A stretch of DNA of 64,000 bases from Candidatus Poribacteria bacterium (lineage in GTDB: Bacteria; Poribacteria; WGA-4E; WGA-3G), in contig OZ243938.1 in NCBI GenBank assembly GCA_965214095.1, positions 4,992,001 through 5,056,000 on the forward strand, written 5' to 3'. This document shows positions 461 through 24,195 of this stretch, in pieces. Positions within the stretch are counted from its first letter, which is position 1, and every line of letters starts with the position of its first letter. Both the position numbers and the translations under genes were made by a program. The notes under the pieces are model-generated. The model ran no database searches and had not been told where the DNA came from. It saw only the letters and a list, made by a program, of their open reading frames with translations.

Positions 461-1351
461 ATGACAAAAACCTATAAAACACTTACGCAATCAGATGTGG
501 AGCATTTCGTTCAGAAGGGACATGTTGTCCTGAAAAACTGCTTTTCACACGAATTAGCTGCAGAGTGGCGTGCTTATGCCTTCAAACGTCTCGGTTATTC
601 CCCTGATGACCCAGAAACTTGGGAACAGCCTCGTATACATTTGTCCTCAATGAATCGTTTGTCGATTCGTGAAATTGCCCCAAGGGCATGGGATGCTATA
701 TGTGACTTACTCGGTGGTGAAGATAGGATTGCCAATACAAAACCTTCGTGGGGTGATGGTTTTATCATCAATTTCGCATTAGGGGCAGATACAGAATGGC
801 AACCCCCAGAGTCACACTACTCAGGTTGGCATAAAGATGGTGATTTCTTCAGACACTTCCTGGATAGTCCTGAACAAGGATTACTAACAATCGTTGTTTG
901 GTCAGATATTCTGCCAAAAAGCGGTGGCACGTTTGTCGCATGTGATTCGGTGCAACATGTCGCACAACATCTATATGCTCATCCAGAAGGTTTGCTACCG
1001 GGACAAGGTTTCGGTCAGTTGTATCAGAAATGTCAGGACTTTGTGGAAATTACGGGGAATGCGGGTGATGTTGTTCTCTTGCATCCGTTTATCTTACATT
1101 CTGCATCACAGAACCCATCGGGACGCGCCCGATTTATCACGAATCCACCCGTTGCACTCAAAGCACCGATGAATTTCAATCGTGACAACCCCGATGATTT
1201 CTCACCTGTGGAGTTAGCAGTCTTACGAGGGTTAGGGAAAGAACGTTTAGATTTCAAACCAGCAGCACCAAGAGAAAAATTAGTGCCGGAACGCGTAAAA
1301 CGCCAGAAGCAGATGTTGGATGAGCAGAAAAAACGACTTGCAATGGGGTAA
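461..1351 (+). CDS. Phytanoyl-CoA dioxygenase (PhyH) family Fe(II)/2OG dioxygenase
   Basis: N-terminal LTQSDVEHFVQKGHVVLKNCF, WHKDG iron motif, GNAGDVVLLHPFILHSAS..N. Confidence 0.8.
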   Translation: MTKTYKTLTQSDVEHFVQKGHVVLKNCFSHELAAEWRAYAFKRLGYSPDDPETWEQPRIHLSSMNRLSIREIAPRAWDAICDLLGGEDRIANTKPSWGDGFIINFALGADTEWQPPESHYSGWHKDGDFFRHFLDSPEQGLLTIVVWSDILPKSGGTFVACDSVQHVAQHLYAHPEGLLPGQGFGQLYQKCQDFVEITGNAGDVVLLHPFILHSASQNPSGRARFITNPPVALKAPMNFNRDNPDDFSPVELAVLRGLGKERLDFKPAAPREKLVPERVKRQKQMLDEQKKRLAMG

Positions 1352-1352
1352 C

Positions 1353-2429
1353 TTACTCATCTTTTTCAGACTCTAACTGTGCCTTCTGCCACCCATAATC
1401 CACATTACCATCATAAAACTTGTCAGGATTTTCTACTGCCCAAATCTGCTTATGGATAATCCAATTTTTAGGGTCTAATGCCAGTGCCTTTCTCCATTCC
1501 ACCATCGCTTCTGTCTTTTTCCCTATCTCTAACAAGGTCCGTCCAAGTTGAAAACGCGCATTTGCCTCAATAACTTTTGGATTTGGCGATTTATTTGGAT
1601 GTTTAGCACTACTTAGTAATGTTGCGTTATAGGTAGGATCGGATATCCATCTCTCAAGCATTTCTATTGTTTCTTTTTTTGCAACGTTAATACTAAATGG
1701 AAATTTAACCAACCGTCCTGCTTCGTCAATCATAACACCATAGGGAATTGCCTTTAGGTTGAAGAGATTCCCAAGAATATTCTGCGAATCGACAAGCGTG
1801 ATAAATTCAGCATTAGCTTTGTCATGCCAGGGACGTACGACAGACGCACCTTGGGCATCTATAGCAATGGAGACAATATTTAGTTTATCACGATGCTCTG
1901 CGTAAAACTTCTGCCATCCAGACAGTTGTCCACGGCATGCTCACCATGAACCCCAAATGTAGAGAAACGTTTTCTTTCCGCGAAAATCTTGCAAACGTTT
2001 TGGTGTACCGTCAAGATCAGACAGTGTAAATTTAGGGGTAAGTCGTTCTGGTCTAACTATCTCTAATTCGGTTTCGGAGGCTTTATATATTTCAAAACCG
2101 AACGGTTCAGTCATGTCTTCAAGTTTTGCGTAAGTTACATTGTCAATGCTGAATGCACGCTCACCCAATTGGAGTGGCACACACAATTCCGATTCTCCAC
2201 TACCACAGATGACGATCATCTCCTCCCCATCAGGTGTCTCAACCTTTAAACCTAACTGCTTACAGAGAGTTTCAATCGGAACTAACCACGTCCCATTCTT
2301 GAAAATAGGAGATGTAGAGAATGTGATTAGTTTGCTGTCAATTGAAACTTTCAGATTGCGAACAGGTGATGCATGCAATCCTGCCGCAAGGGACAGTATA
2401 ATACAAGTGGTGAGCATTAGTTTTGTCAT
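1353..2429 (-). CDS. Putative selenoprotein: signal peptide + copper-amine-oxidase-N-like domain + TlpA/Prx-like redoxin (U-x-C) + TPR-like tail, 358 aa with in-frame UGA at 1943-1941
   Basis: ORFs 1941..2429 and 1353..1733 are in the same frame; the 69 codons between them are stop-free and complete a thioredoxin fold: PKFTLSDLDG...FRGKKTFLYIWGSW-U-ACRGQLSGWQKFY...NIVSIAID...TLVDSQN...AIPYGVMIDEAGRLV. Confidence 0.85.
1906..1940 (-). promoter_or_regulatory. Candidate bacterial SECIS element
   Basis: After UGA: GCAUGCCGUGGACAA-CUGUC-UGGAU-GGCAG-AAGUU; stem CUGUC/GGCAG with loop UGGAU (G at second loop position) starting 21 nt after UGA; folded by eye. Confidence 0.55.
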
Positions 2430-2794
2430 GGTGCGCTTTTCTCCCGATGTTGTGCATCATAAGTTAAGAATTTGATTATCTGTTCAGCGGTCTTTGGGGT
2501 GAGTCCGGACCCTGGTTTTCGCATCATCTTATGCACATAGTGTCGCCATTCCTCAGCCTTAAAGTTGGAATTAATCGGACGTGCAACGGTATGGCATCTG
2601 CTGCATCTCCGAGTGAAGACAGCGTAAAGCGTTTGCATCTCCTCTGGATATTCTGAAACATCAATAAAGTTTGGTCCATCATCTGCTGGATATGTATTAG
2701 GGGCAGTCCGCGGTACGCGTAAGGCATAGTACATGCCAAAACCTACCAGAATGAGAATAACTATAACGACAACCCAAACAATAGCCTGTTGCAA
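2426..2794 (-). CDS. Membrane-anchored monoheme c-type cytochrome
   Basis: N-terminal TM helix, CSRCH heme motif, downstream KMMRKPG candidate distal Met; ATGA overlap with the selenoprotein gene. Confidence 0.8.
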   Translation of the reverse strand: MQQAIVWVVVIVILILVGFGMYYALRVPRTAPNTYPADDGPNFIDVSEYPEEMQTLYAVFTRRCSRCHTVARPINSNFKAEEWRHYVHKMMRKPGSGLTPKTAEQIIKFLTYDAQHREKSAP

Positions 2795-2964
2795 TTCTTA
2801 GTGCCTTTCAAACTCGTTACTAATAGCATTGATGAAAACCAATGAGAAAATTGCTTCACGATTACTCATCGTGTTCACTCAGAATTTGCCTAAATTCATT
2901 GGCATTTTCTACTTGAATTGCAGCGCGAAATAACAACTCAAGTCGTTGTATATCATCAAGAATA

Positions 2965-4812
2965 TCAAACGACATCTTTCACCTTCTGCACAATAGCATT
3001 GGCACTAATCCCATGCAATTCCAATAACTCCTCAGGTTTGCCAGAACGTGGTATGCCTGTAACAGCAAGTTTATGTACACGGACATCTTCAGTCGAAACA
3101 GCATCCAACACCGCATCCCCTAAACCGCCTTCAGGATAGTGGTCCTCAACGGTTATGAGGGTATTGTTTGTTTCTGCTGCAGCAGATAATAGGGTTTCCG
3201 TATCAACAGGTTTGACAGAATACAGATCAATAATACGGACATTGACACCTTCATTCGCAAGTATATCGTGTGCTTTTAATGCCTCGTGAAGTGTGACACC
3301 CGCGGTAACGATGGTCGCTTTATCCTCAGCACTCTCACGAACTACCTTACAACCACCGATAGGAAATTTATCTGTAGCATCGTAAAGCATCGTAGTTTTT
3401 GGACGGGAAGTGCGAATATAGACGATACCTTGGTGTGCAGCAGCTTCTGCTATAAGACGTTCCGCAGCGACAGCATCGCTTGGATATAACACGACAGACT
3501 CAGGGATCGCTCGGAACATGGCGATGTCTTCTAAACCCATCTGTGAAGGTCCATCTTCACCAATTGAGACACCACAATGAGAACCCGCATATTTGATATT
3601 GGCTTGTGAAATCGCAGACATACGAATTTGGTCATACGCACGCGATAGAAATGCTGCAAATGTGGAAACAAACGGAATCTTTCCACGTTTCGCCAATCCA
3701 ATTCCTGCTCCTACCAAGTTCTGCTCCGCAATGAACATTTCAAAGAATCGATCCGGAAAACGGTCCATGAACTGATCGGCATAAGTAGAGTTTTTGGTGT
3801 CTCCATCCAGCGCGACAACGTTTGGATTCGCAGCACCAAGTTTTGCCAAGCCTATGCCGTAACCACCGCGAGTTGCTACCTCTTCGTCAGCAGCGTAATC
3901 TGGTGGTTCACATGCTTTAATCTTAGTAGGTTCGCTATCTATCGGACTTGGAGCTTCTATGTCAACTGAAATATCTGTGTGTAGCGGTCCGAGTTCTTCT
4001 AATGCCTTATCAAGTTGTTCACCTTTAGCAACAGCCTTCCCGTGCCAGTTGTCTTCATTTTCAAGGAAGGATACTCCCTTACCCTTATATGTTTTTGCAA
4101 CAATCATGGTGGGTTTATCAGTTGATGTCTTCGCTCTCTCTAATGCGGATAAAATCTCATCATAATCGTGTCCATCAATACCGATTGTTTGCCATCCGAA
4201 TGCCTCAAAACGATTACAATACGTATCAATATCATGAGCATACATAGTCCGTTGGCTCTGTCCAAGAGCGTTTACATCTACAATTCCGATAAGGTTATTC
4301 AACTTGTAATGTGAGGCTAATGCAGCAGCTTCCCAAACACCACCTTCAGCGGTTTCACCATCACCGAGTAATACATAGACACGGTAATCGGATTTGTCCA
4401 AATATTTTCCGTTCAGTGCCATGCCGAGTCCAAGCGACAATCCTTGTCCGAGCGACCCAGTCGCCACCTCTGTCCAATCAAAACGTGGCGTTGGATGTCC
4501 TTCAAGAATACTATCAATCTGTCGAAGTGTTTGCAGATCATCTGTTGGGATGATACCTGCTTCAGCATAAGCAGCATAAAGTAGTGGTGCGGCATGTCCT
4601 TTTGATAAGATAAACCGGTCATTGTTCGGGTTTTGCGCGTCTGCACAGTCATAACGCATCACATGAAAAAACAGCGCAGAAACAATATCTGCTGCCGAAA
4701 GGCAGGTGGTTGGATGTCCTGAACCTGCCTCTGATGTTGATAAAATAGAGTGTATACGTAAGTTAGTTGCTTTTCTTTTAAGAAGATTCTTCAATGTGTC
4801 CACAAATTTCAA
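2965..4812 (-). CDS. tkt: Transketolase (single-chain, 615 aa)
   Basis: SGHPTT, DRFILSKGHAAP, EGHPTP, ATGSLGQG, GDGE...EG..WEA TPP motif, IAEQ, GEDGPSQM; RBS AAGGA before TTG. Confidence 0.95.
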   Translation of the reverse strand: MKFVDTLKNLLKRKATNLRIHSILSTSEAGSGHPTTCLSAADIVSALFFHVMRYDCADAQNPNNDRFILSKGHAAPLLYAAYAEAGIIPTDDLQTLRQIDSILEGHPTPRFDWTEVATGSLGQGLSLGLGMALNGKYLDKSDYRVYVLLGDGETAEGGVWEAAALASHYKLNNLIGIVDVNALGQSQRTMYAHDIDTYCNRFEAFGWQTIGIDGHDYDEILSALERAKTSTDKPTMIVAKTYKGKGVSFLENEDNWHGKAVAKGEQLDKALEELGPLHTDISVDIEAPSPIDSEPTKIKACEPPDYAADEEVATRGGYGIGLAKLGAANPNVVALDGDTKNSTYADQFMDRFPDRFFEMFIAEQNLVGAGIGLAKRGKIPFVSTFAAFLSRAYDQIRMSAISQANIKYAGSHCGVSIGEDGPSQMGLEDIAMFRAIPESVVLYPSDAVAAERLIAEAAAHQGIVYIRTSRPKTTMLYDATDKFPIGGCKVVRESAEDKATIVTAGVTLHEALKAHDILANEGVNVRIIDLYSVKPVDTETLLSAAAETNNTLITVEDHYPEGGLGDAVLDAVSTEDVRVHKLAVTGIPRSGKPEELLELHGISANAIVQKVKDVV

Positions 4813-4918: not shown

Positions 4919-5918
4919 GAACTCATATTGAGTAAAACATAATAATGCTATATAATAGGGAAACACAAGAGTTTATTTATGTCCTATTCTTTCACTTCAT
5001 ATATCTATAACTTATTGAAAGGTGTTGTTATGGCAGACAAGGTTCAAGAGCCCCTCAGATACAATGGTATTCCGAAGCAGGTTTCACGTAAGGATTTTAA
5101 TCGTTATATCAAACCTCATCTAAAGAAACGCATAAAAGGTCCCAAACCGAAACTGTCTTTCTATAAGATATTCAACTATATCCTCTATGTTTTACATACC
5201 GGTATTCAATGGGATCAACTCCGCACACGGCGTAATGAACTCCATTGGTCTAACGTCTATAAATGGCATAATCGTTGGTCAAAAGATGGTTCTTATGAGA
5301 AACTTTTTGAAGCATCTGTCATACATCTTCATGATAGTGATCAACTTGACACCTCTTGTTTACATGGTGATGGTTCAAACACTGTTGTAAAAAAAGGGGT
5401 GACACCATAGGGTATTCAGGTCATAAACATCAAAAAGGTGAAAAAGAGGTGGCTATCACCGACAATAAAGGTTTTATCATTGGTCCAATAACCCTCAAAC
5501 CAGTGAACCAACATGATACAACGATTTTGCCCGAGGCATTGACCGAACTCATCTCCTTCAGCAATCGGATTGGCATGGCACTTGATGGTTCCGCGCTAAC
5601 GCTGGATTCTGGTTTTGATTCCAAGGTGAATCATAAGATTATTAAAGAACAAGGACTGATCCCAGTGATCTACCCTAACAAACGAAACACTAAAGAACCT
5701 ATCGCTATCGCTCGCAAGTTCCGGTGGTTTAGAAAAGATATATACAAAGACCGGTATAAAGTAGAGCGAACTTTCGGGTGGCAAGATACTTACCGAAGAC
5801 TCGTTCTAAGTTATGATAAACTCAAAGAAACACGTTTAGGTTTTCGTAATTTAGCATATTCAATGATAAATTTTCGAGCAACTTTCAACGATGCTTAGAT
5901 GTTACTCGCTATGAGTTC
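4919..5918 (+). mobile_element. IS5-family insertion sequence, 1000 bp, nested in the IS200/IS605 element
   Basis: TIRs GAACTCATAttGAGTAA / TTACTCgcTATGAGTTC (15 of 17 match); 3-bp TSD ATC at 4916-4918 and 5919-5921; own promoter TTGAGT-17-TATAAT at 4928-4956. Confidence 0.9.
5030..5898 (+). CDS. IS5-family DDE transposase expressed by -1 frameshift at A7G (5389-5396)
   Basis: OrfA (ILYVLHTGIQWDQL...WHNRWSKDG...HGDGS) ends just after GTA AAA AAA GGG; the -1 frame continues GDTIGYSGHKHQKGEK...LDSGFDS...RYKVERTFGW. Confidence 0.85.
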
Positions 5919-5940
5919 ATCTAAAAACTAATATAATATC

Positions 5941-6273
5941 TTTAGCAATCGGCATTGGTTGTGATTGATGCTACGGCAGATAGCTAAGCAGTGAAACAAT
6001 CACGTAAAAGCTTTGCTATTCAATACTGCTAAAGTTTTCAAAACATCTGTTGCGTGTTAGGGAAAGAAGTTTCAAAACTCATCCCGTTGATATTCACACG
6101 TGAAAATGTTTCTTAAGACCTCCTTTGGAGGTGCAGTTGGGACATCAACTGTTGGAGTAGGCTTTGTCACTGGAATGCCTGTTAGGTTTTCTAAACAAGG
6201 TCGTTGATACCACAATTGCTTGTGTGATTCTTTCAAAAGAATCACCGGAGTTTTAACTCGGTGAGTATGTCAA
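5941..6273 (+). ncRNA. Structured RNA; 3' half resembles a TnpB omegaRNA (reRNA) scaffold
   Basis: Starts just after TATAAT (5932-5937); no long ORF; many stems (GTGATTG/CAATCAC, AAAGCTTT/AAAGTTTT, AAACAT/ATGTTT, GCGTGT/ACACGT, ACCTCC/GGAGGT, CAGTTG/CAACTG, GTGATTCTTT/AAAGAATCAC); ends at the IS right end. Confidence 0.55.
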
Positions 6274-6863
6274 GAGTGTTTAGCCTTCAATGTTTCTGTG
6301 CGTCGTTGCGCTGCAACTGCAAGATAGTGGTGTTTGCAGGTTTTTGCAAGAGATTCAAATGTTTTGATTGCCTTTGGAATATCATGTGTTTTGACATAAG
6401 ACTCTGCCTGCCAATAAATCGATTTGGCTAATATTTCGTTTGTCGCAGACTGTTTCCTTCTCTGCTTCTTTTCGTTTTTGATAGCATCGCCAAATTTCTC
6501 TATTGCCTGTTCATAGTCATTGTCATCATAGTAAGCGGCAATCGCTTCTGTAAATGCAAGATTGTTTTCTTCTTGTTCGTTAAAAGGTTCGATGTCAATC
6601 GTTTGTCCTAAAATAATTGAAGAGCCTTTGACCGTGCGTTCATCTTCATCATCGTATTCATCATCGTATTCGTCATCTGCTTCATCCACAGCATTCGCGG
6701 CATCTTCTTCATCGTCATCTTTATCAACAACTAACGGATCAAATTCATCCTCATCGGTAAACTCTCTGTTTTGCTCATCCTCAGAGTCGTCCGATATTTC
6801 ATCCTCAGAGTCGTCCAATATTTCATCATCAATACCATCAAGCTCTTCAAGTTTGAACTCCAT
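6270..6863 (-). CDS. Protein with very acidic low-complexity N-terminus and C-terminal TPR-like (CpoB/BamD-like) domain
   Basis: D/E-rich N-terminus with a 21-bp tandem repeat; YEQAIEKF...AKSIYWQAESY...AIKTFESL; RBS GAGGAG before ATG 6863; stop codon lies in the IS right-end TCAA. Confidence 0.75.
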   Translation of the reverse strand: MEFKLEELDGIDDEILDDSEDEISDDSEDEQNREFTDEDEFDPLVVDKDDDEEDAANAVDEADDEYDDEYDDEDERTVKGSSIILGQTIDIEPFNEQEENNLAFTEAIAAYYDDNDYEQAIEKFGDAIKNEKKQRRKQSATNEILAKSIYWQAESYVKTHDIPKAIKTFESLAKTCKHHYLAVAAQRRTETLKAKHS

Positions 6864-7284: not shown

Positions 7285-8079
7285 CTATAAAACTACTTTG
7301 ATGGATTCAGCTGTCGTGTCATTCCCTATAGTTAACCAATAATGAATCTCGTTGTTACCTTGTTCATCACTAATGGATTTTATGGCGATTTTACTTCCCT
7401 CATGGAACTCACACGCTGAAGATAGAAGCACAAACTGACGCTCCCGTTGTTCATATACGGCAATACCTGAACTTGGACATGGAAATTCGACTAGGTTTAT
7501 AGGAAATTCGTAAATCAGAATTAGTGTTGTGGCCACGGGATCTGTTGAATCAATCGCCTTTGGGTCAAAGATATGTGTTTCCTTATGGAAGAGCTTAACT
7601 TTATCGGTAAGGCCAAGCACTCGTAGCACCTCTGATGCTTCCAAATCAACAATTTTGTTAACTTTTCCGTTAGAATCGCCTTTCAAATTCTCGCCATTCT
7701 CAACCCATCCAATAACGATTTTGCGTGAAGAGTACTGACCTTCAGTGACACTCTTTCCTGTATCTACCGAGAGGAACTCAGTACCTTTAATCATTGAAGC
7801 ACATGCTTCAAGGCACATTAACAAGGATTCAGAATAGATACAGATTTGTCCATTCCGAACGCTTACAGATACATCGTTCTTTTCAAGCGGCACTGCTAAT
7901 ATGGATTCTGCTTCGGTTTTGGTCGTATATAACTGAAAAGTAGCGATCCATCCCGGATTGTCTGTTGTTTCTAGGCTAAAGCCGAAATTATGCTCCCACC
8001 GTCCATCACAACGGGATTGGAACCAATTTTCAATAGTTTTCAGATTTGCTTGCATAAACATTTCACCTTCGCCTTTCAT
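7285..8079 (-). CDS. Immunity protein Imm53-like domain fused to an unknown C-terminal domain
   Basis: IENWFQSRCDGRWEHNFGFSLETTDNPGW fits the Imm53 pattern W(Y/F)..CDG.WEH..G..(I/L).T.DNPGW. Confidence 0.7.
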   Translation of the reverse strand: MKGEGEMFMQANLKTIENWFQSRCDGRWEHNFGFSLETTDNPGWIATFQLYTTKTEAESILAVPLEKNDVSVSVRNGQICIYSESLLMCLEACASMIKGTEFLSVDTGKSVTEGQYSSRKIVIGWVENGENLKGDSNGKVNKIVDLEASEVLRVLGLTDKVKLFHKETHIFDPKAIDSTDPVATTLILIYEFPINLVEFPCPSSGIAVYEQRERQFVLLSSACEFHEGSKIAIKSISDEQGNNEIHYWLTIGNDTTAESIKVVL

Positions 8080-8398: not shown

Positions 8399-9196
8399 CT
8401 ATTCCACATCCTTTGCACACCGAAACCCATAAGTGGCAAGGCGATGAAATGGTTTATCATAATATAGGTAATCCGATTCAAAATGCCTTCGGAGAGACAT
8501 CCATGCGCCACCGCGAAGGATTTTCAGTGGTCCCGGTTTTGTGCCGGTCGGTTCTGCCTCCAAACGAAAATCCTTGCCTTCATAAGCATCTGAACACCAT
8601 TGCCACACATTGCCGACAAGGTCAAATACACCAACAGGACTCACATTCTTTTCTTGAGTTCCTACAGCATAAGGTGCTAAACGAGCGCGATAATCAATCG
8701 CCTCAAAATCAAATTCATCTCCCCAAGGAAAACGCTGCTTTGTGTTGCCTTGGCAAGCCAGGGTCCACTCCGCAGCAGTCGGCAACCGTGCACCCCGCCA
8801 ATTTGAGTATGCCTCCGCCTCATACCAACTTACACCAGTCACAGGCAATTTCTTACGATTTAGGTATTCCTCATGATACGTAGATGGGACCCAGAATTCA
8901 TACTTTTCAAGGAATTCGCGCCCTTCCTTTGACCAATACTTCTTTTTCTTGTACCCGCCATCCTCAATGAACTGATTATACTGTTCATAAGTTACCAAAT
9001 GTTTGGCAATATAGAAGGTGGAAACAGTGACTGTTTCCTCGGTGTCAAAGGGGTGGACGGTGCCTCCTTCTATCTTTATCATCTCAGGTTCTGTCATCTG
9101 TTGCTCCTTGTTCAGTTCATCTTGCTGTGGACCAGGAAGTTCACATGCCGTGATAATGCTGAACATCATAAATAGTGTCACTGATATATTCTTCAT
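8399..9196 (-). CDS. Lipoprotein with FGE-sulfatase (SUMF1/EgtB/PvdO) domain
   Basis: IITAC lipobox; PVTGVSWYEAEAY..W.G.RLPT.AEW; G.FDLVGNVWQW; RGGAW; GFRCA. Confidence 0.85.
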   Translation of the reverse strand: MKNISVTLFMMFSIITACELPGPQQDELNKEQQMTEPEMIKIEGGTVHPFDTEETVTVSTFYIAKHLVTYEQYNQFIEDGGYKKKKYWSKEGREFLEKYEFWVPSTYHEEYLNRKKLPVTGVSWYEAEAYSNWRGARLPTAAEWTLACQGNTKQRFPWGDEFDFEAIDYRARLAPYAVGTQEKNVSPVGVFDLVGNVWQWCSDAYEGKDFRLEAEPTGTKPGPLKILRGGAWMSLRRHFESDYLYYDKPFHRLATYGFRCAKDVE

Positions 9197-10215
9197 GGGT
9201 TCACAGCCTTGATAGGAATAGTAATCTCCGGGACATCCGGATGGGTTGTAAATATCTTGATCTCCCCCTCAACAAGTCCTGATGATGCTATGTTAGTCTT
9301 CGGAGCAATAGAAAGTTCCAGCTCATGTGAAGTTTGTGCTTCCTTTGAAAGAGATGCAGTTACTGAAAAGTTATCTGCAGATACCTTTTTCAAAGCAAAG
9401 GGGCGGCTGCCATCGGTTTTGATTTGAATCTTCTTCTGTACGCTCGGACCTGAACCATCCAAAACACCCAGAAACAAATTCTGCGGTAACACCACAATAC
9501 CACCTAACACACGCCCATGAAATTGAATAGACATCTCCAATTCCTTTGAATCGGTTCCAGGGAGTACTTCCTGTGCTTGTGCAGTAATCGTTAGTGTCTC
9601 GTTATACAAACCTACATCATTTAGCATTAAGACAACATCACATTCCATACTCTCACCTGCGGGAATGCTTTTCTTCGGTAGCGTAGCAACAATGTTTTTA
9701 TTGCTCACCGTGTGTTCGGTTATCTCAACGGTGTTTTTTAAGTTATTAGATAATTTAATCTTTTTAGAAATATCTTCTCCTTTCTCAAGTTGTCCCAATT
9801 CGATTTTTTGGGGATATGCCATAGGTGGGATAATGACTCCTGAAACTTCTAAATTCACAATTGGTTTAGCAGGATCGTCAGTAGAAACGAAGACATTCTG
9901 GCGAAAACTTCCTACGCCTCTTTCAACTACCACCCGGATTTTCCCTATATCCCCCGGAAGAATCTTATTCAAAGTGGTGTTCGTCGCAACACATCCACAA
10001 TCCGAATCTATCTTTTCAATATGCAGTGGTGCGTTGCCTTCGTTGGTAAAAGAAAAGGTCGTGGCGATCTCCGAACCAACGATAAAAGGATCTGGAAATT
10101 GATGCTCCTGGTTTGGAAAAACAACCTTCGGTTCTCTATGAGAAGTGCACCCCTGCAACAATGGAACACTACTGCACAATATTAAAAACATTAGAAATAT
10201 AGAAGTGTAATGCAT
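9193..10215 (-). CDS. DUF1573-like (Ig-fold, CGC motif) lipoprotein
   Basis: LLQGC lipobox; FSFTNEGNAPLHIEKIDSDCGC; V.TDDP; three Ig-like repeats. Confidence 0.75.
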   Translation of the reverse strand: MHYTSIFLMFLILCSSVPLLQGCTSHREPKVVFPNQEHQFPDPFIVGSEIATTFSFTNEGNAPLHIEKIDSDCGCVATNTTLNKILPGDIGKIRVVVERGVGSFRQNVFVSTDDPAKPIVNLEVSGVIIPPMAYPQKIELGQLEKGEDISKKIKLSNNLKNTVEITEHTVSNKNIVATLPKKSIPAGESMECDVVLMLNDVGLYNETLTITAQAQEVLPGTDSKELEMSIQFHGRVLGGIVVLPQNLFLGVLDGSGPSVQKKIQIKTDGSRPFALKKVSADNFSVTASLSKEAQTSHELELSIAPKTNIASSGLVEGEIKIFTTHPDVPEITIPIKAVNP

Positions 10216-11414: not shown

Positions 11415-12497
11415 TCATTCTGTCGTTTCCTTATCTGTTTCCTCTTTCTGAGTTTTATCACGAATCGGCATCTGTCTGCCTTCATCATCACTAAGGTCTG
11501 ACAAATCACAATTGAAGAAATTGTGAGGAAGCCCAAGATTAAAGTCCATCTCTTTAATCGTAATTACAGTGTGCCGCCGCATAAAACTATTAGCACCACT
11601 AAACTCCTTTTCCTCACGAACTTTCGGAACAGCTATGTTTAATCTCTCAATCTGCTCAAAATCGCTGTATGTCTTTACTAATTGTAAAAAATACCCTTCA
11701 GTATTGGCGCGCGGTGATGTACTCTTATAGTAGAACTCTTCCTTGAATACCTCAGGGAACTTGTCCTCTATACGCACATATATTTTCACCTTCAGATGTG
11801 CATCAGGACGATAATCGGTTATGACATAAATCGGCACATTGCGGGTGTCAATCTCTGTTAAATGTACCTTAGCTTGTGTTTCATCAATCGCCAAGAAAGG
11901 TGGTTGATGTGATGCCATTACTTCAATTGAATTAGAATACTCCCATTTTTCTAAAAAACCAATAAGTCTAATATTGGAAAACTGATTCGGTGCCTCACGT
12001 ATGAGCGTTTGGAAACCGTTAGAAAAGAAATGACGTAAATTGCCGCCATTAAGGAAGCGAAGATGTTTAAGAGACGGATAATCATCAAATAGGTACGCAT
12101 GTTCTATTCGATACATTAGTTGGGTCTCAAATTGTCCCTTAGATAACAAATCCTGGAACACTAGGTTGGACTCTAAAAAAAGGCAGTTCTTTTCCGATTC
12201 TCGAAACCAACCATATCTTTTTTCCTCTTCAAGATGTTTTAAAATCTCTTTTCGAAGTGCCTCTGGATTCTCACTTTTAGGCGGATTTTCGCGTAGCTGT
12301 CTTTCCCAATTATTGATCAATCTACGGTGTGCTATTCCTACTTCATCTGGATGGGTAGGATATTGTTGATATAAAAGAAATTTTATCTCACCATCTTGGA
12401 TAAGGTTCCGAGAAAAGTTCAAAAGTTGAATGAGTGTTTTTGGTTCCATTTGACTTACCTGTTCTGAATATACTCCCCTTATAAGTACACATAGCAA
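11415..12497 (-). CDS. Uncharacterized protein, LolA-fold-like C-terminus (paralog 2 of 3); probable true ATG at 12534 is out of frame by +1
   Basis: MEPKTLIQLLN...IQDGE...PEVFKEEFY...IKEMDFNLGLPHNFF. Confidence 0.6.
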   Translation of the reverse strand: MLCVLIRGVYSEQVSQMEPKTLIQLLNFSRNLIQDGEIKFLLYQQYPTHPDEVGIAHRRLINNWERQLRENPPKSENPEALRKEILKHLEEEKRYGWFRESEKNCLFLESNLVFQDLLSKGQFETQLMYRIEHAYLFDDYPSLKHLRFLNGGNLRHFFSNGFQTLIREAPNQFSNIRLIGFLEKWEYSNSIEVMASHQPPFLAIDETQAKVHLTEIDTRNVPIYVITDYRPDAHLKVKIYVRIEDKFPEVFKEEFYYKSTSPRANTEGYFLQLVKTYSDFEQIERLNIAVPKVREEKEFSGANSFMRRHTVITIKEMDFNLGLPHNFFNCDLSDLSDDEGRQMPIRDKTQKEETDKETTE

Positions 12498-18002: not shown

Positions 18003-19883
18003 TTATCTACCCCAACCACCCTGTGATCTCTGTCTACGTTGTAGGATGACGCGGTCACCTTCTTTGATACCGCTCTTGACAATGACGTTTGTCTCGTTTT
18101 GCATGCCCGTTTCAATAAGGGTTTCAACACCTTTGCCTCCATTATCCAACATGACATACTTTCCTCGTATAACATTGACCTGTGCTTGAACACCATCCGC
18201 TTTCTTCTCTCCATTAATTAATAGTGATACGGTAGAAGATCCAGAGATGAGACCCCGTTGTGAACTGTCAAGTTCAATCGTGACGCTTCCATTTGCAACA
18301 TCTTTGATAGTGCCGTTGAATATCTTCTCACTCAACGTCTGCATAGCAACCGGTTTGCCAACTTTGAAGGGGGATGTGTTGCCTACCTGTGTGACAGCAG
18401 TGGCAGAAGTTTTTGAAATGACTGCATCAAGCGGTAGCAACAGAACATTCTTTTCTTCATAAGTAATGATGTCCACATCAGCACTCATACCAGGTTTGAT
18501 TCTTCCTGATGAATCAAGCACCTCTATCATAACCTCAAACGAGATAATGTTGTCTTGTTGTTGTCCACTCGGTGAGATTTCATAGACTCTACCGTCATAT
18601 TTTTGTGTTTGGAAAGCATCGATTTTGATGACAGCGGGTTGGTTGTTTTCAAGACGTTCCATATCAACTTCGTTGATGAAAGTTTTGACCACCATTTTTG
18701 AAAGATCTGCAATTGTCATGATAGGTGGACTCTGAGAAAATGCTGAACGTCCGGAGGTGACAATTTCACCTTGTTCAATATCGAGTTGTGTAACTGTGCC
18801 TGACATCGGTGCCTTAATAGTTGTCCAAGCGAGCCGTTCTTCTTGATTTTTTAAACTACTTTCTCTTCGCAGGAGGTTTGCACCAGCACTCACCTTTGAC
18901 TGTTCCGTAAGCAATTTCTCATTATCAATAGTGAGTAATAGTTCTTGTAGCTGCGTTCTTGAGTTATCCAAACGAATTTGGCTTTCCTCTTCTGCTTTCT
19001 GTCGTGTCTTTTTGAGGTGCTGAAGGTTTAATTCTTGGTATTGTAGCTGCGCTTCGCGGGTTTTTATTCCAGTTTTACGTGCTTCAATTGTGCGTTGTTG
19101 TGAAACGATGGTTTGTTTCTGTGATTCTACCCGTTTTTTGGCATTTTCATGCTGGGTATTAGAATTGGCATATCGAGTTTCAGTATCTTCTAACACCTGC
19201 TTTGAGACCAATTCCTGTTCATAGAGTGAGGTGTTGCGATCTAACTCTGATTTAGCCGAATCTAATGAAACTTTTGAAGAATTTTTTGATGTTTCGTATT
19301 CAGCGAGAGACAACTCAGCTTGTGCAAGTGAAATTTTTGCCTGTTCTAAAGAGATATTATCTTGTTCTAACAGATTTTTTGTTGATTGGATATCAGTTTC
19401 AGCGGAACTGATGCGAGTTAAGGATTCCGCTTTTGTCGTTTCAAGGTTCGCTTGTGCGATTCGGACAGCCGCCTTTCTCTGTAATTCGTCGCTATTGAGA
19501 CGTTCTTTTTTAAGTTCAATGTTCAATTCAGACTGCATAAGCTGCGCTGCAGCGGCCTTCACGTCTGCTTGGGCTTGTTTCTCTTCCTCCTGATATAATT
19601 CCGGGTCAAGACGTACTAAAATGTCGTCTTTTTCAACATAGTCGCCATCATCAACAAGCAGTTCTATGACTTCACCTTCAACGTTTGATTTGACTTCAAC
19701 GTCAAGAAGTGGCTCTAAATTCCCAGTGGCTCTGATGGTCATTTGGAAATTGCCGCGTTTGACGAGTTCTATTCTTGGTGCCTGCGCTGGCTCAGTTCCG
19801 TTTTTTCCACGACTTAGTACAACCCATCCCGCTGCAACCACAATAATAACGATAGTTGCTGCAGTAATAATAAGTTTCTTCAA
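18003..19883 (-). CDS. MacA/HlyD-type periplasmic adaptor with very long coiled coil
   Basis: N-terminal TM; ATGNLEP..VEVKS.V.GEV..L.V..GD.V.K; TTIKAPMSGTV; INEVDM; IKPGMSADVDI. Confidence 0.85.
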   Translation of the reverse strand: MKKLIITAATIVIIVVAAGWVVLSRGKNGTEPAQAPRIELVKRGNFQMTIRATGNLEPLLDVEVKSNVEGEVIELLVDDGDYVEKDDILVRLDPELYQEEEKQAQADVKAAAAQLMQSELNIELKKERLNSDELQRKAAVRIAQANLETTKAESLTRISSAETDIQSTKNLLEQDNISLEQAKISLAQAELSLAEYETSKNSSKVSLDSAKSELDRNTSLYEQELVSKQVLEDTETRYANSNTQHENAKKRVESQKQTIVSQQRTIEARKTGIKTREAQLQYQELNLQHLKKTRQKAEEESQIRLDNSRTQLQELLLTIDNEKLLTEQSKVSAGANLLRRESSLKNQEERLAWTTIKAPMSGTVTQLDIEQGEIVTSGRSAFSQSPPIMTIADLSKMVVKTFINEVDMERLENNQPAVIKIDAFQTQKYDGRVYEISPSGQQQDNIISFEVMIEVLDSSGRIKPGMSADVDIITYEEKNVLLLPLDAVISKTSATAVTQVGNTSPFKVGKPVAMQTLSEKIFNGTIKDVANGSVTIELDSSQRGLISGSSTVSLLINGEKKADGVQAQVNVIRGKYVMLDNGGKGVETLIETGMQNETNVIVKSGIKEGDRVILQRRQRSQGGWGR

Positions 19884-19982
19884 AACCTAATTCCTCCTAA
19901 AATTGTTGTATATGCAAAACCCTATAAGTTTCGTAGTGTTAGTATTAAATCTAAAGGTTCTCTGTAAGACTAAGACTGTTGG

Positions 19983-21299
19983 TTAATCGGATCGGAGTGC
20001 TTCAACAGGTGTAAGTTTTGCTGCCTTATATGCTGGATATAACCCAAAGAAAACACCGATAGCAACTGACACGAGTAATGCAATGAACATTGTTAAAAAC
20101 GAGACGACCGAGGGCCAATTACTCCCTTCCCATACGAATTTAGAGATTAACGCTGCTGTACCCTTTCCCATAAATACTCCCATAATTGATCCGAGGATCC
20201 CACCAGCGAATGTAAGGACAGAAGCTTCAATCAGGAACTGTGTGATAATGTCATTGAATGTTGCACCGAGTGCTTTCCGCAGCCCGATTTCTTTGGTACG
20301 GTCCGTTACGGAAACGAGCATGATATTCATGACCCCAATGCCTGCTACCATCAGAGCAATACCAGCAATACCACCCATTAGTAGTTTCATGACCAAACCG
20401 ACTTTATCAGCGGTTGCCAATTCCTCTTCTGCAGTCCAATAGTTATATTCTTCTCCTGTGTTATTATGCTGTCTCCCTAACACCTGTTTTGAATCGTCTA
20501 TTACGAGTGGAATTTTCTCAATGTCCTCAGCTTCCACGCGTATACGTTCAACATCTTGCCTACCTTTAAACCGTTCCTGAAGCGTTGTTATGGGTATGAT
20601 GAACCTGTCATCCCACCCTGTGGTGTCCATCGCGTCGCCTTTTTCTTCCATGACACCGATGACTTTCAGGCGCACCTCATAGAGTCCACTCATACCGCGC
20701 CAATATGATGGACGCGAAGCTTTGATCTCTTTGCCAACTGGGTCTTCATGAAGAAAAATCTCTTCAGCGATTTTTGACCCAATAACAGCAACACTGCTTG
20801 AGGATTCAACTTCTTCTGGCGTAAAGAATCTGCCATCTGATGTGTACCAGTTATATGAACGGTCGTAGCCTGCAGTTGATGCAACAATGCGTGATTCCTT
20901 TTTACGTCCTTTATAACTAACACTCCAGCCAGGCATATCATCTTCTGCGACAACATCAATAATCCCGCGTGCATTTTTCAATATCTCAAAAGCGTCTTCT
21001 GTTTCCAAATGTTCAGCACGGTTTCTACGCCATCGACTCTTACCTCTAACAGCCTGACCAGCAGCACGACTCAAAGTACCTGATTGCCTATCCCAATCAT
21101 CTTTGTAGATTTCAATAATCTTTGTACCACCTGTCCGTTCGATTTCTCTTAGCACCATAGCTCTGGAACCGTCTCCAACAGAGACCATACAGACTACAGA
21201 ACCGACCCCAACGATAATACCCAAAATCGTCAGACCAGAACGAAGCGGATTTCTTTTTAAACTGGTGATACCTAAAATAATACATTCAAAAAGGTTCAT
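19983..21299 (-). CDS. MacB-like ABC permease (no NBD), paralog 4
   Basis: RSGLTILGIIVGV; GIGVMNIMLVSVTDRTKEIGLRKALGA; YPAYKAAKLTPVEALRS. Confidence 0.9.
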   Translation of the reverse strand: MNLFECIILGITSLKRNPLRSGLTILGIIVGVGSVVCMVSVGDGSRAMVLREIERTGGTKIIEIYKDDWDRQSGTLSRAAGQAVRGKSRWRRNRAEHLETEDAFEILKNARGIIDVVAEDDMPGWSVSYKGRKKESRIVASTAGYDRSYNWYTSDGRFFTPEEVESSSSVAVIGSKIAEEIFLHEDPVGKEIKASRPSYWRGMSGLYEVRLKVIGVMEEKGDAMDTTGWDDRFIIPITTLQERFKGRQDVERIRVEAEDIEKIPLVIDDSKQVLGRQHNNTGEEYNYWTAEEELATADKVGLVMKLLMGGIAGIALMVAGIGVMNIMLVSVTDRTKEIGLRKALGATFNDIITQFLIEASVLTFAGGILGSIMGVFMGKGTAALISKFVWEGSNWPSVVSFLTMFIALLVSVAIGVFFGLYPAYKAAKLTPVEALRSD

Positions 21300-21311
21300 A
21301 TAGTTCTCCTC

Positions 21312-22613
21312 TTACTCAGTGCGTAACGCCTCTATCGGTGAAAGTGCGGAGGCTTTTAATGCTGGATACAACCCAAAAGAGACACCAATTAAAGCAGAAA
21401 ATGAGACAGATATAATAACCCACTGCATTGAGATAACGGATGGCCAATCAGGTACGATTTTAACAATATTGACTGCAAGAAGTGCCATACCTTCACCCGC
21501 AAGATAACCTAACCCAACACCTAATGCACCACCTATGATACACATCACAATAGATTCTATGAGGAACTGCATCATAATATCCAATCGTTTAGCACCGATC
21601 GCTTTACGCAAACCGATTTCCCGTGTGCGTTCACTCACTGCGACCAACATCATATTCATAATACCAATGCCACCAACAAGAAGTGAAAATCCAGCGATGC
21701 TTCCCAACGCGATCTTAATAACTTTACTGATCTTATCCAGCTGAGCCATACCTTCGCGCATATCTCGCAGGTCAAAGAAGTCATCCTGATTTTTGTGCAT
21801 CTTTCTCATAACCGCTTTCACCTCTTCAATGGCTTTCGGAACATCATCAACAGTATGTGCTTGCACCGATAGCATGACGACGTTATCGTTGCCGGTAAAC
21901 CGTTCTTGTGCTGTAGTGAGAGGAAGAAATAACATATCGTCAAGATTCCATCCAAATCGTAGACTTCTGCCGCGTGCTTCCATTGTTCCGACTACGGTGA
22001 ACCTTTCAGCCATCCGTGCTTGGTCTCTTCTTCCGTAACGGTCATAACGGTCCCCACCTTTACCAATTTTTATTTCTTTATCAATTGGGTCTTGTGTGCC
22101 GAAGAGATTTAAGGCCACCTCAGTTCCTAATACACAAACCTTTGCTTTGAGATCCATATCTTCTTCGGTGATAAAACGTCCATCTTTAACTTTCCAATCC
22201 ATCGCTTCGGGAAAAGAAGCATTGACACCATTATAGCCACTACGCGCTTCGGAGCCATCATTCGTTTGGATGAGTACGCCTCGCCATTCAGGAATGCGTG
22301 GGACGACGACCTTGACAGATGGACATTCAGCTTCAATAGCCAAAACATCATCGTACTTAAAGTGTTCATTACTGCGGTTTGGCATCCATCGGGAACCTAC
22401 ACGTTTGTGGCTGCTGCGATACATAGTGAATTGGTTGACACCACCAAGTTTTTGGGCATCCTGCAACACAATTTCCTTCGCCCCATCCCCGATTGAAATC
22501 ATCGCGAGCACTGAAGCAACACCAATGATAATTCCAAGCATCGTTAGCAAGGATCGTAGTTTGTTACTACGAATCGCTGAAAACCCAACGAAAAATCCTT
22601 CAAATATACGCAT
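21312..22613 (-). CDS. MacB-like ABC permease (no NBD), paralog 3
   Basis: RSLLTMLGIIIGV; GGIGIMNMMLVAVSERTREIGLRKAIGA. Confidence 0.9.
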   Translation of the reverse strand: MRIFEGFFVGFSAIRSNKLRSLLTMLGIIIGVASVLAMISIGDGAKEIVLQDAQKLGGVNQFTMYRSSHKRVGSRWMPNRSNEHFKYDDVLAIEAECPSVKVVVPRIPEWRGVLIQTNDGSEARSGYNGVNASFPEAMDWKVKDGRFITEEDMDLKAKVCVLGTEVALNLFGTQDPIDKEIKIGKGGDRYDRYGRRDQARMAERFTVVGTMEARGRSLRFGWNLDDMLFLPLTTAQERFTGNDNVVMLSVQAHTVDDVPKAIEEVKAVMRKMHKNQDDFFDLRDMREGMAQLDKISKVIKIALGSIAGFSLLVGGIGIMNMMLVAVSERTREIGLRKAIGAKRLDIMMQFLIESIVMCIIGGALGVGLGYLAGEGMALLAVNIVKIVPDWPSVISMQWVIISVSFSALIGVSFGLYPALKASALSPIEALRTE

Positions 22614-22840
22614 TTCTTGTCTCCAAAGACATGCAAAGATAATACACTTCTACGCTTGGTTATTTAGACAGAAATAAGCGAATAATGTTCGTGGAATTAA
22701 CAAATTATAAGTATTAAATCTGCATACTCTGTTTGCCAAGTAATACATGGTGTTGTTTAGAATGTAATTACTTTATTGACGTAATAATTGTGTAATAGGT
22801 TTATTTGAAAAGGATTGCTTTTTGAATTATGGGGTACGTT

Positions 22841-24142
22841 CTACTCTGTCCGTAACGCTTCAATGGGGGAGAGTGAGGATGCTTTGATAGCAGGATACAA
22901 ACCAAACGATATACCGATCAACGCGGAGAACGAAATTGAAATCAATACCCACTCGGTTGAGATGACTGACGGCCATTCAGGGACGACTTTTGCTATTTTA
23001 ACAGCGAGTATTGCCATGCCTTCACCAGCGAAATACCCTAAAGCCACACCTATCAATCCACCTACACTGCACATTGCAACAGCCTCAATTAGGAACTGCG
23101 TTAGAATGTGATAACTTTTAGCACCGAGTGCTTTCCGCAACCCTATTTCGCGCGTACGTTCACTAACAGCGACAAGCATCATATTCATGATGCCGATACC
23201 ACCAACAAGCAACGAGAAACCTGCAATACTACCCAGCGCAATCTTTATGACTTTACTGATTTTATCTAATTGTGCCATACCTTCGCGCATATCAAAGATT
23301 CTGATGAAGTCATCTTGGTTCTTGTGCCGCTTGCGGATAACAGCCTTTACCTCTTCAATCGCCTTGGGAACAAGATCAACAGTTTTTGCATAAACAACAA
23401 TATCCTGTATCCTATCATCGCCAGTGAACCGTTCTTGTGTGGTTGTCACGGGCATAAAGACAAGACTATCGTAACTCCAACCGAATCGGAGACTTCTGCC
23501 TCTCGGTGTCATCGTGCCAACAACCGTGAAACGTTCTGTGGATCGGTTCTTGCTTCTACGGCCATATCGGTCATACCGACCATCTCCTCTGGCGATTTTT
23601 ATCTCTTTTCCAACGGGTGATTCATCACCGAATAAATTCTTCGCGGTCTCATCACCAAGAACACAGATAGTCGCTGCATTTTCCACATCCTCATCAGTAA
23701 TAAATCGTCCTTCTTGAAGTTTCCAATCCATTGCAGTATGATAATATGCATCCACCCCGTTATAACCCGCACGTACTTCTCTGCCTCTGGAGGCTTGAAT
23801 TAACGCACCTCTCCATTCAGGTATCCTTGGTGTTACAGCGATTACTGATGGACATTCTGCAGCAATTGCTATGACATCACCATATTTCATATACTCATTG
23901 CTGCGTATTCTCACCCACTGTGTGCCTTCCCGTTTATACCAAGTGCGGTAGATAGTAAACTGGTTTGCGCCACCGAGTTTTTGAGCATCGCGTAGGACGA
24001 TTTCTTTTGCACCATCCCCGATGGCAATCATCGCAAGCACCGAGGCAACACCGATGATAATGCCAAGCATCGTCAGCAATGAACGCATCTTGTTTGAACG
24101 GATAGCATGAACCCCGATAGATAATCCCTCAAAGAGTCGCAT
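22841..24142 (-). CDS. MacB-like ABC permease (no NBD), paralog 2
   Basis: Same motifs; 433 aa like paralogs 1 and 3. Confidence 0.9.
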   Translation of the reverse strand: MRLFEGLSIGVHAIRSNKMRSLLTMLGIIIGVASVLAMIAIGDGAKEIVLRDAQKLGGANQFTIYRTWYKREGTQWVRIRSNEYMKYGDVIAIAAECPSVIAVTPRIPEWRGALIQASRGREVRAGYNGVDAYYHTAMDWKLQEGRFITDEDVENAATICVLGDETAKNLFGDESPVGKEIKIARGDGRYDRYGRRSKNRSTERFTVVGTMTPRGRSLRFGWSYDSLVFMPVTTTQERFTGDDRIQDIVVYAKTVDLVPKAIEEVKAVIRKRHKNQDDFIRIFDMREGMAQLDKISKVIKIALGSIAGFSLLVGGIGIMNMMLVAVSERTREIGLRKALGAKSYHILTQFLIEAVAMCSVGGLIGVALGYFAGEGMAILAVKIAKVVPEWPSVISTEWVLISISFSALIGISFGLYPAIKASSLSPIEALRTE

Positions 24143-24195
24143 AATGTTACCTTATAGATAATGACTTTGTTGAATTCTATGTGAACTGGTTGTAT

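Follow-up and report, generated by a model that had tools for sequence, protein, structure and literature searches.

A probable exported selenoprotein of Candidatus Poribacteria, encoded by a single gene with a conserved internal UGA and coupled to a small c-type cytochrome

Introduction

On the minus strand of a stretch of Candidatus Poribacteria DNA (contig OZ243938.1, positions 4,992,001 to 5,056,000; the whole stretch of 64,000 nucleotides is called the window, and coordinates refer to it), two open reading frames (ORFs) each hold part of a thioredoxin-fold protein and follow a small gene for a c-type cytochrome. The locus raises the question of whether these ORFs are separate genes, the remains of a broken gene, or one gene whose internal UGA is read as selenocysteine (Sec). 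A reading made from the letters alone (the sequence-only reading) had favored the last answer. It proposed a single frame, broken only by a TGA at the first Cys of a redoxin motif, that gene callers split; a selenocysteine insertion sequence (SECIS)-like hairpin behind the TGA; and coupling through an ATGA overlap to a cytochrome with a single CxxCH motif. It noted that UGC-type, peroxiredoxin (Prx)-like selenoproteins exist in bacteria, and regarded the U-A-C form of the motif, the domain architecture and the ATGA coupling as less familiar.

We compared the locus with related loci and families, and conclude that 2429..1353 is most probably one undamaged gene whose product is an exported selenoprotein, a redox enzyme coupled to the cytochrome as proposed; we put the probability of this reading at about 0.82. 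The comparison corrects a systematic annotation error and, in the cytochrome partner, provides a functional lead for a family that had none before.

Results

One reading frame runs through a conserved UGA

Under translation table 11, the strand yields the ORFs 2429..1941 (162 residues, the last of them IWGSW before the TGA) and 1733..1353 (126 residues), which share a common frame. Reading through the TGA joins them into a protein of 358 residues, with the lone in-frame TGA at codon 163 in the motif IWGSW-U-A-C-R. The two ORFs are one frame broken at this codon only, as the sequence-only reading had held. Family tests used Pfam and NCBIfam models with their curated cut-offs. The 69 codons between the called ORFs (codons 164–232) lie inside the AhpC-TSA/Redoxin Pfam match, which covers residues 131–242 and crosses the TGA; they complete the fold, as had also been claimed.

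Orthologues were obtained from 79 loci in one scan of a species-representative genome collection; by title, 74 of these are Candidatus or uncultured Poribacteria, four are 'uncultured bacterium' and one is Armatimonadia. Of the 79 loci, 78 have TGA at the homologous codon, which amounts to 79 copies because one locus (L023) has two; protein identity to the window runs from 41% to 86%, and orthologues cover residues 1–358 of that protein at 55–86% identity. The sole locus without the TGA (L075, positions 5000–6700) resembles a natural knock-out: the selenoprotein gene lacks its N-terminal half, including the Sec site, and the cytochrome is intact. TGC, TGT or TGG was found at the Sec codon in none of the 79 copies among related loci, and the idea that the TGA is a one-off change among relatives that read Cys or Trp finds no example there.

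Together with the window, the TGA-bearing copies make 80 sequences. Codon comparisons were made on 78 full-length sequences, with L074 and L079 dropped as truncated or frameshifted. Over the 69 codons past the TGA, the mean pairwise differences at codon positions 1, 2 and 3 are 0.135, 0.085 and 0.468, respectively, and the proteins are more alike after the TGA (mean pairwise identity 76%; 80% over the 69 codons) than before it (62%). These comparisons indicate that the downstream segment of the protein is under purifying selection. The conserved TGA, the codon-position differences and the higher downstream identity together argue that translation runs past the UGA.

Reassignment of UGA throughout the code is excluded, since the cytochrome ORF of the operon ends in TGA in 75 of 76 scored copies, and TGA also terminates the selenoprotein gene itself in nine orthologues. 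By this comparison the recoding is local and does not reflect an altered genetic code.

The simplest alternative, that the TGA is a true stop between two separate genes, or the mark of a pseudogene or of a sequencing error, is scarcely credible. Gene callers do split the gene at this point, and 83 of the best 150 representative clusters described below are fragments. Against this stand the retention of the TGA across so wide a range of protein identity, and the strong coding periodicity and purifying selection of the codons that follow it. A stop would, moreover, cut the thioredoxin fold at its active site, and the second called ORF begins only 69 codons later, within the fold.

The window was also scanned for further recoded genes. 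Eight same-frame ORF pairs split by TGA were found, of which only the pair at 1943..1941 has support. The pair at 11417..11415 was rejected as a recoded gene, as it looks like two adjacent genes.

A SECIS element under RNA-level constraint

A hairpin begins 15 nt past the UGA. In the window it reads CUGUC-UGGAU-GGCAG, and all 80 aligned sequences carry CUG[C/U]C-N-G-G-N-U-GGCAG at the same distance. A review gives the constraints on a bacterial SECIS as a loop of 3–9 nt, an upper stem of 4–16 bp, a G within the first two loop positions (the typical loop being N1-G-[G/U]-N-N2), a UGA-to-loop distance of 16–37 nt and a minimum free energy of −7.5 kcal/mol or lower (PMC13188914). The element measured here has a stem of 5–6 bp and an apical loop N-G-G-N-U, and 20 nt separate the loop from the UGA. 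Folded over 48 nt, 80/80 sequences reach a minimum free energy of −7.5 kcal/mol or lower, and the stem is present in that fold in 72/80. By these measures the hairpin fits the published constraints.

The decisive evidence for the hairpin is the invariance of its synonymous sites. Only three of 150 conserved degenerate columns have zero codon entropy, namely the TGA, Leu169 (CTG) and Gln173 (CAG). The latter two, CTG in 78/78 and CAG in 78/78 sequences, are the two arms of the stem. CTG is scarce, accounting for only 299 of 2386 Leu codons across these genes, and the gene-wide minimum of synonymous variability is centred on codons 165–173. This pattern, seen in aligned codons, indicates that the hairpin is under constraint at the RNA level, and the SECIS-like element of the sequence-only reading holds up. 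In a two-helix structure, 97.4% of cells pair, as compared with 37–58% when the partners are slid, the structure having been derived from the same sequences.

Selenocysteine machinery and the weighing of the Sec assignment

The sequence-only reading would have fallen with a host that has no Sec machinery. A supplementary COG table records SelA (2), SelB (1) and SelD (1) for 'Ca_Poribacteria_WGA3G' (PMC5649159). Candidatus Poribacteria bacterium WGA-3G is the source of one of our loci (L030), which carries a TGA orthologue and the cytochrome; the machinery is thus reported for a genome that has the gene. The same source has SelA and SelB co-occurring in most sponge-symbiont bins (PMC5649159), and PMC13582414 describes Sec-type group 4 hydrogenases from Poribacteria and Armatimonadota.

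The UGA might be recoded in another way, either as Cys through a tRNA-ReC-type (selC*) tRNA that uses the same hairpin and SelB, or by near-cognate readthrough. Cys is functional at the site in homologues, which would suit the former. If Cys sufficed, however, a switch to TGC or TGT would have been an easy route, and none of the 79 copies has taken it; SelA and SelD, furthermore, are on record for the orthologue-carrying genome in the COG table (PMC5649159). We regard such recoding as very improbable, and infer that Sec is inserted at codon 163.

A number of observations weigh against this assignment. The hairpin of the window, taken alone, is not unusually stable (z = −0.83 over 67 nt), which would also suit a true stop; its stem includes a G-U pair, and over 48 nt the lowest-energy fold of the window sequence uses a different pairing. 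The support for the SECIS element comes, therefore, from the comparison with relatives. Compensatory change is nearly absent as well, with 0 compensatory pairs by RNAalifold and one pair, in two cells, for the two-helix structure. A claim of covariation was dropped on these grounds, and the support consequently lies in invariance. No selA, selB or selD was found among the 42 ORFs of the 64-kb window covered by the NCBIfam scan, and ARAGORN detected no tRNA-Sec in the window or in the 60 of the 79 loci scanned (0 tRNAs in the window, and only tRNA-Ala in the 60 loci); Rfam models, applied to the window at their gathering thresholds, matched nothing. Finally, the window protein scores 141.7 bits on its best NCBIfam family, NF041054, for which the cut-off is 300.

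Domain organization and predicted structure

The features of the locus are collected in Table 1.

Table 1. Features of the selenoprotein and cytochrome locus, in window coordinates.
Feature	Coordinates	Strand	Remarks
Selenoprotein coding sequence	1353..2429	-	358 codons plus TAA stop (1355..1353); joins the two called ORFs
UGA, codon 163, predicted selenocysteine	1941..1943	-	Same codon TGA in 79/79 copies (78/79 loci) and in the window
Cys165, likely resolving cysteine of U-x-C	1935..1937	-	Cys in 78/78 orthologues, TGT and TGC both used
SECIS element	1902..1933	-	Lower stem 1933..1929/1906..1902, internal loop, upper stem 1925..1911, apical loop 1920..1916
Signal peptide, residues ~1-21	2367..2429	-	MTKLMLTTCIILSLAAGLHA/S; inferred by reading the sequence
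N-terminal beta-rich domain, residues ~24-125, Cu_amine_oxidN1-like	2055..2360	-	PF07833; strands in the model
Redoxin domain, thioredoxin fold, ResA/TlpA-like, residues ~131-246	1692..2039	-	Pfam, Foldseek
C-terminal helical domain, residues ~284-357	1359..1580	-	TPR-like helix pair and conserved NWIIHKQIWAVE(N/H)PDKFY segment
Cytochrome c gene, 122 residues	2426..2794	-	TTG start, TGA stop; N-terminal hydrophobic anchor/signal segment and small haem domain
CSRCH haem-binding motif, residues 64-68	2591..2605	-	CS[RK]CH conserved in orthologues
ATGA overlap, cytochrome stop TGA/selenoprotein start ATG, 4 nt	2426..2429	-	Kept in 76/80 copies
Transketolase gene, upstream of the cytochrome gene	2965..4812	-	Same strand; NCBIfam NF004559, 917 bits

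An AlphaFold2 model of the 358-residue protein, predicted from an alignment of 86 sequences, has a pLDDT (predicted local distance difference test) of 92.7 and a pTM (predicted template modelling score) of 0.87, with pLDDT below 50 at residues 1–9 and 17–19. A presumed signal peptide, which suggests export, is followed by three domains. The N-terminal β-rich domain matches PF07833 (Cu_amine_oxidN1) over residues 30–78 with 25.0 bits, against a cut-off of 24.2. It bears a pair of cysteines, C75 (2207..2205) and C83 (2183..2181), spaced C-x4-7-C on a β-hairpin and retained in 47 of the 49 aligned sequences that cover the domain, distant Cys-form homologues and true NF041054 members included. The pair may form a structural disulfide or a second redox centre. 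At the C-terminus the model has helices at residues 284–301, 305–318, 323–333 and 345–357; sub-threshold TPR matches extend over residues 289–326 (TPR_2, 21.4 bits, cut-off 27), and residues A308, A315, P320, N322, Q328 and P335 are nearly invariant across the 86 sequences.

The central redoxin domain is matched by the Pfam families AhpC-TSA (47.7 bits, cut-off 26) and Redoxin (41.1 bits, cut-off 26.6). A Foldseek search against the PDB ranked ResA first (1su9, 1st9, 2f9s, 3c71), followed by DsbE, Etrx, StoA and TlpA. Target TM (template modelling) scores are 0.6–0.85 over ~137 residues, and 0.78–0.85 for the top ResA, TlpA, DsbE and Etrx matches. The matches listed align 131–156 columns, so that the redoxin domain alone appears to be matched. 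In the model, residue 163 lies between strand 153–159 and helix 164–179, at the N-terminus of helix α-1, which is the canonical active-site position of the thioredoxin fold.

This position is presumably also that of Sec in glutathione peroxidases, and a peroxidase has to be considered, in which Sec163 would reduce hydroperoxides and Cys165 would resolve the selenenic acid, protecting the envelope in oxygenated sponge tissue. The peroxidatic signature of peroxiredoxins is PxxxTxxC. It is absent here, where the site reads LYIWGSWUACR, without T-x-x-C. AhpC/TSA is the best Pfam family, and the Global Ocean Sampling (GOS) study files the selenoprotein family as 'Prx-like' in its table (PMC2398784), but the structural neighbours are oxidoreductases of the ResA/TlpA type and not peroxiredoxins, no reductant partner is evident, and the relatives with S/D-x-S at the site would better fit a binding or exchange scaffold. 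On balance, peroxidase activity appears improbable.

Coupling to a cytochrome c gene

The gene that precedes the selenoprotein encodes a cytochrome with a single CxxCH motif. Residues C64, C67, H68 and M90 are invariant in 32 cytochrome orthologues, and M90 is probably the distal haem ligand. An automated count found the 4-nt overlap (ATGA, once GTGA) in 75 of the 80 copies, to which inspection added one more (L063). The comparison bears out the proposed coupling. One locus (L001, positions 5300–6000) is the converse natural knock-out: of the cytochrome only the final ~18 codons are left, behind an ORF that has been inserted, and the selenoprotein is intact. Locus L023, on a Poribacteria chromosome-scale contig, has two tandem cytochrome–selenoprotein pairs (2279–3358 and 6001–7080, ~3.7 kb apart), each with the TGA and the ATGA overlap.

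The cytochrome has no NCBIfam match, and no curated cytochrome family of Pfam or NCBIfam scores above its cut-off. PF09098 (Dehyd-heme_bind; 21.5 bits, cut-off 25.2) comes closest, and PF13442 (Cytochrome_CBB3) reaches 17.8 bits against 27. The best PDB profile match is the dihaem subunit of quinohemoprotein amine dehydrogenase (1jju_A, E = 1e-4). The cytochrome resembles this α-subunit (1jju_A; PF09098) in the pattern CxxCH...E-W...V-x-(K/R)-M-M-R...G-x-x-L, and differs from it in its single haem motif, its length of 122 residues, its N-terminal hydrophobic segment and the lack of a dehydrogenase context. The 231 database clusters of the cytochrome are nearly all of ~122 residues, and those that carry a name are all called 'hypothetical protein [Candidatus Poribacteria bacterium]'. 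From these sequences, the family appears to be confined to Poribacteria.

In 73 of 79 loci the pair is preceded, on the same strand, by a transketolase gene. A consensus scan detected neither a terminator-like site in 1200..3100 nor a promoter-like site separating the transketolase and cytochrome genes, and the transketolase is possibly in the same transcript as the cytochrome–selenoprotein pair. Just beyond the transketolase gene, the window has an IS5-family transposase on the plus strand (4979..5898), split into two ORFs of 143 and 149 residues (NF033580 positions 11–90 and 132–256); it is absent from all 79 related loci.

Homologues and family assignment

To survey the wider family, 1.84 billion cluster representatives were searched exhaustively with HMMER; this gave 16,584 matches, and the best 150 were sorted by local BLAST. 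They comprise 80 C-terminal pieces, which begin at residues that align to positions 165–234 of the query; four N-terminal pieces, three of which stop exactly at residue 162 and one at residue 141; 45 site-spanning sequences; eight TPR-only or partial sequences; and 13 without a BLAST match. The C-terminal pieces and the three that end at residue 162 are the split that had been predicted for gene callers.

Among the 45 site-spanning sequences, 20 have W-x-S-W-C-x-C, which places the TGA at the first Cys of the redoxin motif, as had been claimed from the sequence alone; the check among homologues thus finds TGA in the related loci and C-x-C in more distant proteins. Ten are ordinary multi-domain CxxC proteins, which need an inserted residue to align, and 13 are S/D/C/L-x-S/C variants. 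The remaining two are a sequence with Trp at the Sec position (P0048) and a frameshifted call (P0002). S or D takes the Sec/Cys position in P0018, P0021, P0023, P0024, P0033, P0037, P0059, P0086, P0104 and P0118. Members of this type often have S at the second Cys too (e.g., W-A-S-W-S-G-S-R) and keep the remaining scaffold; judging by these residues, they are apparently redox-dead.

Among 5.8 billion proteins, a near-length search brought up a single close homologue, namely the frameshifted read-through P0002, together with one unrelated CxxC redoxin. P0002 was rejected as a read-through form without Sec, as its sequence follows the alternative frame of the window at the site and near the C-terminus. 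Because the call is frameshifted, it is uninformative on residue 163.

UGC-type, Prx-like selenoproteins are indeed known. Table 2 of the GOS study lists 'Prx-like (UGC-containing)' under pfam00578, with the motif UGC, 46 selenoproteins and 855 Cys homologues (PMC2398784), the name 'UGC-containing TlpA family' is likewise in use, and NCBIfam has NF041054, 'ResA-like WAxxUGC motif-containing protein' (WAxxUGC_long, an equivalog model of 354 positions). On this model the Cys-form relatives P0066, P0112 and P0146 score 440–515 bits, P0033, P0130 and P0111 score 300–321, and the Poribacteria-type orthologues in L066, L072 and L078 score 158–181. The window protein shows the features described for UGC-containing TlpA/Prx-like proteins: a thioredoxin-fold TlpA/Prx-like domain, a UGA in the first position of the motif, a downstream SECIS element and Cys homologues, with its U-A-C counted as U-G-C when the motif is read as U-x-C. 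Because it has these features and falls short of the equivalog cut-off, we call it a divergent member. On sequence grounds, the protein is a new, divergent Poribacteria member of the known UGC-containing TlpA/Prx-like selenoproteins.

Two points of the sequence-only reading do not survive this comparison. U-A-C is a trivial variant, as the middle residue varies freely, Cys homologues included; 60 of the 78 orthologues have U-G-C and the remainder U-A-C, like the window. The architecture itself was read correctly, with a presumed signal peptide, a Cu_amine_oxidN1-like domain, a redoxin and a TPR-like tail, but it is not unfamiliar. True NF041054 members of the Cys form have the three-part layout, which is therefore a trait of the family and not an invention of Poribacteria. 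The novelty had been overrated, the family being already in print and provided with an NCBIfam model. What appears specific to the lineage, by comparison of these loci, is the coupling to the cytochrome, the lack of a Cys orthologue and the presence in all 79 loci, 74 of them from Poribacteria. The literature searched had no mention of the family with a Poribacteria host or a cytochrome partner, although supplements of PMC13582414 and of ISME J 2016 could list it, and yielded no published function for TlpA-type selenoproteins.

Discussion

Proposed mechanism and the role of the cytochrome

We propose that the ribosome completes the cytochrome at its UGA (2428..2426) and reinitiates on the AUG that overlaps it. 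Some 490 nt further on, the UGA of codon 163 would be read as Sec, with the SECIS hairpin, 7–41 nt downstream, recruiting SelB–Sec-tRNA. The exported product would combine the β-rich N-terminal domain and its Cys pair with a ResA/TlpA-type fold, which holds Sec163 and Cys165, and the helical tail. Sec163 would act as the nucleophile on a disulfide or mixed disulfide of an exported client protein, Cys165 would resolve the intermediate to leave an intramolecular selenylsulfide, and a membrane reductant pathway would recycle the enzyme. The prime candidate for the client is the co-translated apocytochrome, as the cysteines of CSRCH need reduction ahead of haem attachment.

Within the redox-enzyme reading, we tentatively prefer a ResA/CcmG-like client role of this kind to that of an electron partner, while placing its chances somewhat below even. 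By analogy, it is favored because the closest structures and family names are those of cytochrome-maturation reductases and because the gene is welded to a cytochrome gene. Three observations speak against it. The most divergent orthologues (L066, L072 and L078) have no cytochrome upstream, which suggests that the core function is independent of the cytochrome; the NCBIfam scan found no CcdA/DsbD or ResBC/Ccm genes nearby in the window; and C-x-C motifs of the Cys type are comparatively oxidising (PMC3173608), and would therefore suit isomerases or oxidases better than ResA-type reductants.

The redoxin might instead be a thiol/selenol dehydrogenase or oxidase that has the cytochrome as its dedicated acceptor and not as its client. 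Thiols would then reduce the selenylsulfide, ferric haem would re-oxidise the selenolate/thiol one electron at a time, and the membrane-anchored cytochrome would feed these electrons into the respiratory chain. Thermodynamically, a His/Met-type haem c would take up electrons from a thiol or selenol in a downhill step, and the reverse would be uphill. To our knowledge, there is no precedent for a thioredoxin-fold enzyme, free of flavin and metal, that has a cytochrome as the physiological acceptor it reduces, and this counts against the proposal, as do the three orthologues without a cytochrome. A periplasmic redox enzyme coupled in translation to a small, dedicated cytochrome c in nearly all copies is what such a partnership would look like, and the cytochrome family, apparently restricted to Poribacteria, has no other recorded name or context; the oxidising, isomerase-like potentials of C-x-C motifs (PMC3173608) point the same way. 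Taken together, we consider an electron partnership, the main alternative, unlikely.

In a more specific form, the pair would be a flavin-free thiol:cytochrome c oxidoreductase, whose U-x-C takes two electrons from exported thiols and passes them singly to its dedicated, membrane-anchored cytochrome and from there to the respiratory chain. The thiols could be protein cysteines or small sulfur compounds, and the selenol could tolerate the one-electron chemistry. The idea is a long shot. If true, bacteria would have an equivalent of the CPC-motif disulfide relay of mitochondria, which has cytochrome c as its end point, and there would be a chemical reason for the absence of Sec-to-Cys replacement in the Poribacteria orthologues.

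Whichever role the cytochrome has, practically all public predictions show the selenoprotein gene in split or truncated form. Metaproteomes and pangenomes of sponge symbionts therefore miss a conserved enzyme, presumably an exported redox protein. UGC-type TlpA/Prx-like selenoproteins have been listed since 2008 without a known function. The coupling to an orphan cytochrome (76/80), and a Sec that is never Cys (0/79), offer a testable handle on the function of the family and on its need for selenium. The gene also adds a second selenoprotein family as evidence for the use of Sec by Poribacteria.

Other genes in the window

The window holds a lipoprotein-like DUF1573/'OS_HP2 family (seleno)protein' (9193..10215, minus strand), with 85.9 bits on NF041425 (cut-off 100) and 88.9 bits on PF07610. 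It carries D-S-D-C-G-C, the Cys form of a family that is listed with a UGC/UxC Sec motif, and the last 4 nt of its gene overlap the start of an FGE-sulfatase/EgtB-SenA-like gene (8399..9196, minus strand). At 7285..8079 (minus strand), an ORF that encodes an Imm53 (immunity protein 53) domain hints at a polymorphic-toxin immunity gene. Four tandem MacB/FtsX-type permease paralogues of 433–438 residues occupy 18003..25497 (minus strand), next to a HlyD/RND-adaptor-like gene of 626 residues. Beyond these, at 25987..31773 (minus strand), lies a protein of 1928 residues with tandem-95 repeats and a T9SS type A C-terminal sorting domain, which has partial similarity to a myxosortase-dependent M36 metallopeptidase.

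Comparison with known systems

The spacing of the redox pair is shared with C-x-C proteins, namely the CGC variant of thioredoxin, Bacillus subtilis YphP and CsgC, in which a single residue separates the two positions; a thioredoxin fold surrounds the motif in YphP and in the thioredoxin variant (PMC3173608). These proteins differ from the present one in that they are all-Cys, and mostly cytoplasmic or of another fold, as is the Ig-like CsgC (PMC3173608). Potentials of −130 to −200 mV are given for Cys-type C-x-C motifs (PMC3173608). These comparatively oxidising values are not directly transferable to a selenylsulfide.

With the CxxC reductases ResA, CcmG and TlpA, the protein shares its closest solved structures (1su9, 1st9, 2f9s, 3c71, 1jfu and 4txo), a presumed extracytoplasmic location and a genetic link to a c-type cytochrome. 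It also has a conserved Pro229, in the segment A-I-P-Y-G, at what we take to be the position of the cis-proline in ResA/CcmG/TlpA folds. It departs from these enzymes in having one residue and not two between the redox residues, so that the C-x-x-C motif is absent, in having Sec for the first Cys, and in its additional N- and C-terminal domains. Its scores fall below the cut-offs of both the ResA model (NF002854; 63.1 bits, cut-off 170) and the TlpA model (NF047696; 35.2 bits, cut-off 230).

The likeness to the UGC family of the GOS study and the 2026 review includes the thioredoxin fold (pfam00578), Sec as the first residue of U-x-C after W-x-x-W, many Cys homologues and a bacterial SECIS element directly downstream. 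The window protein has U-A-C, and the published entries, in the tables available, give no architecture, host or gene context. Compared with NF041054, its best stretch aligns only to model positions 48–209, and it reads W-G-S-W-U-A-C where the model has W-A-x-x-U-G-C. It has in common with members of that family (P0066, P0112 and P0146) a similar length, the three-part layout and the N-terminal Cys pair.

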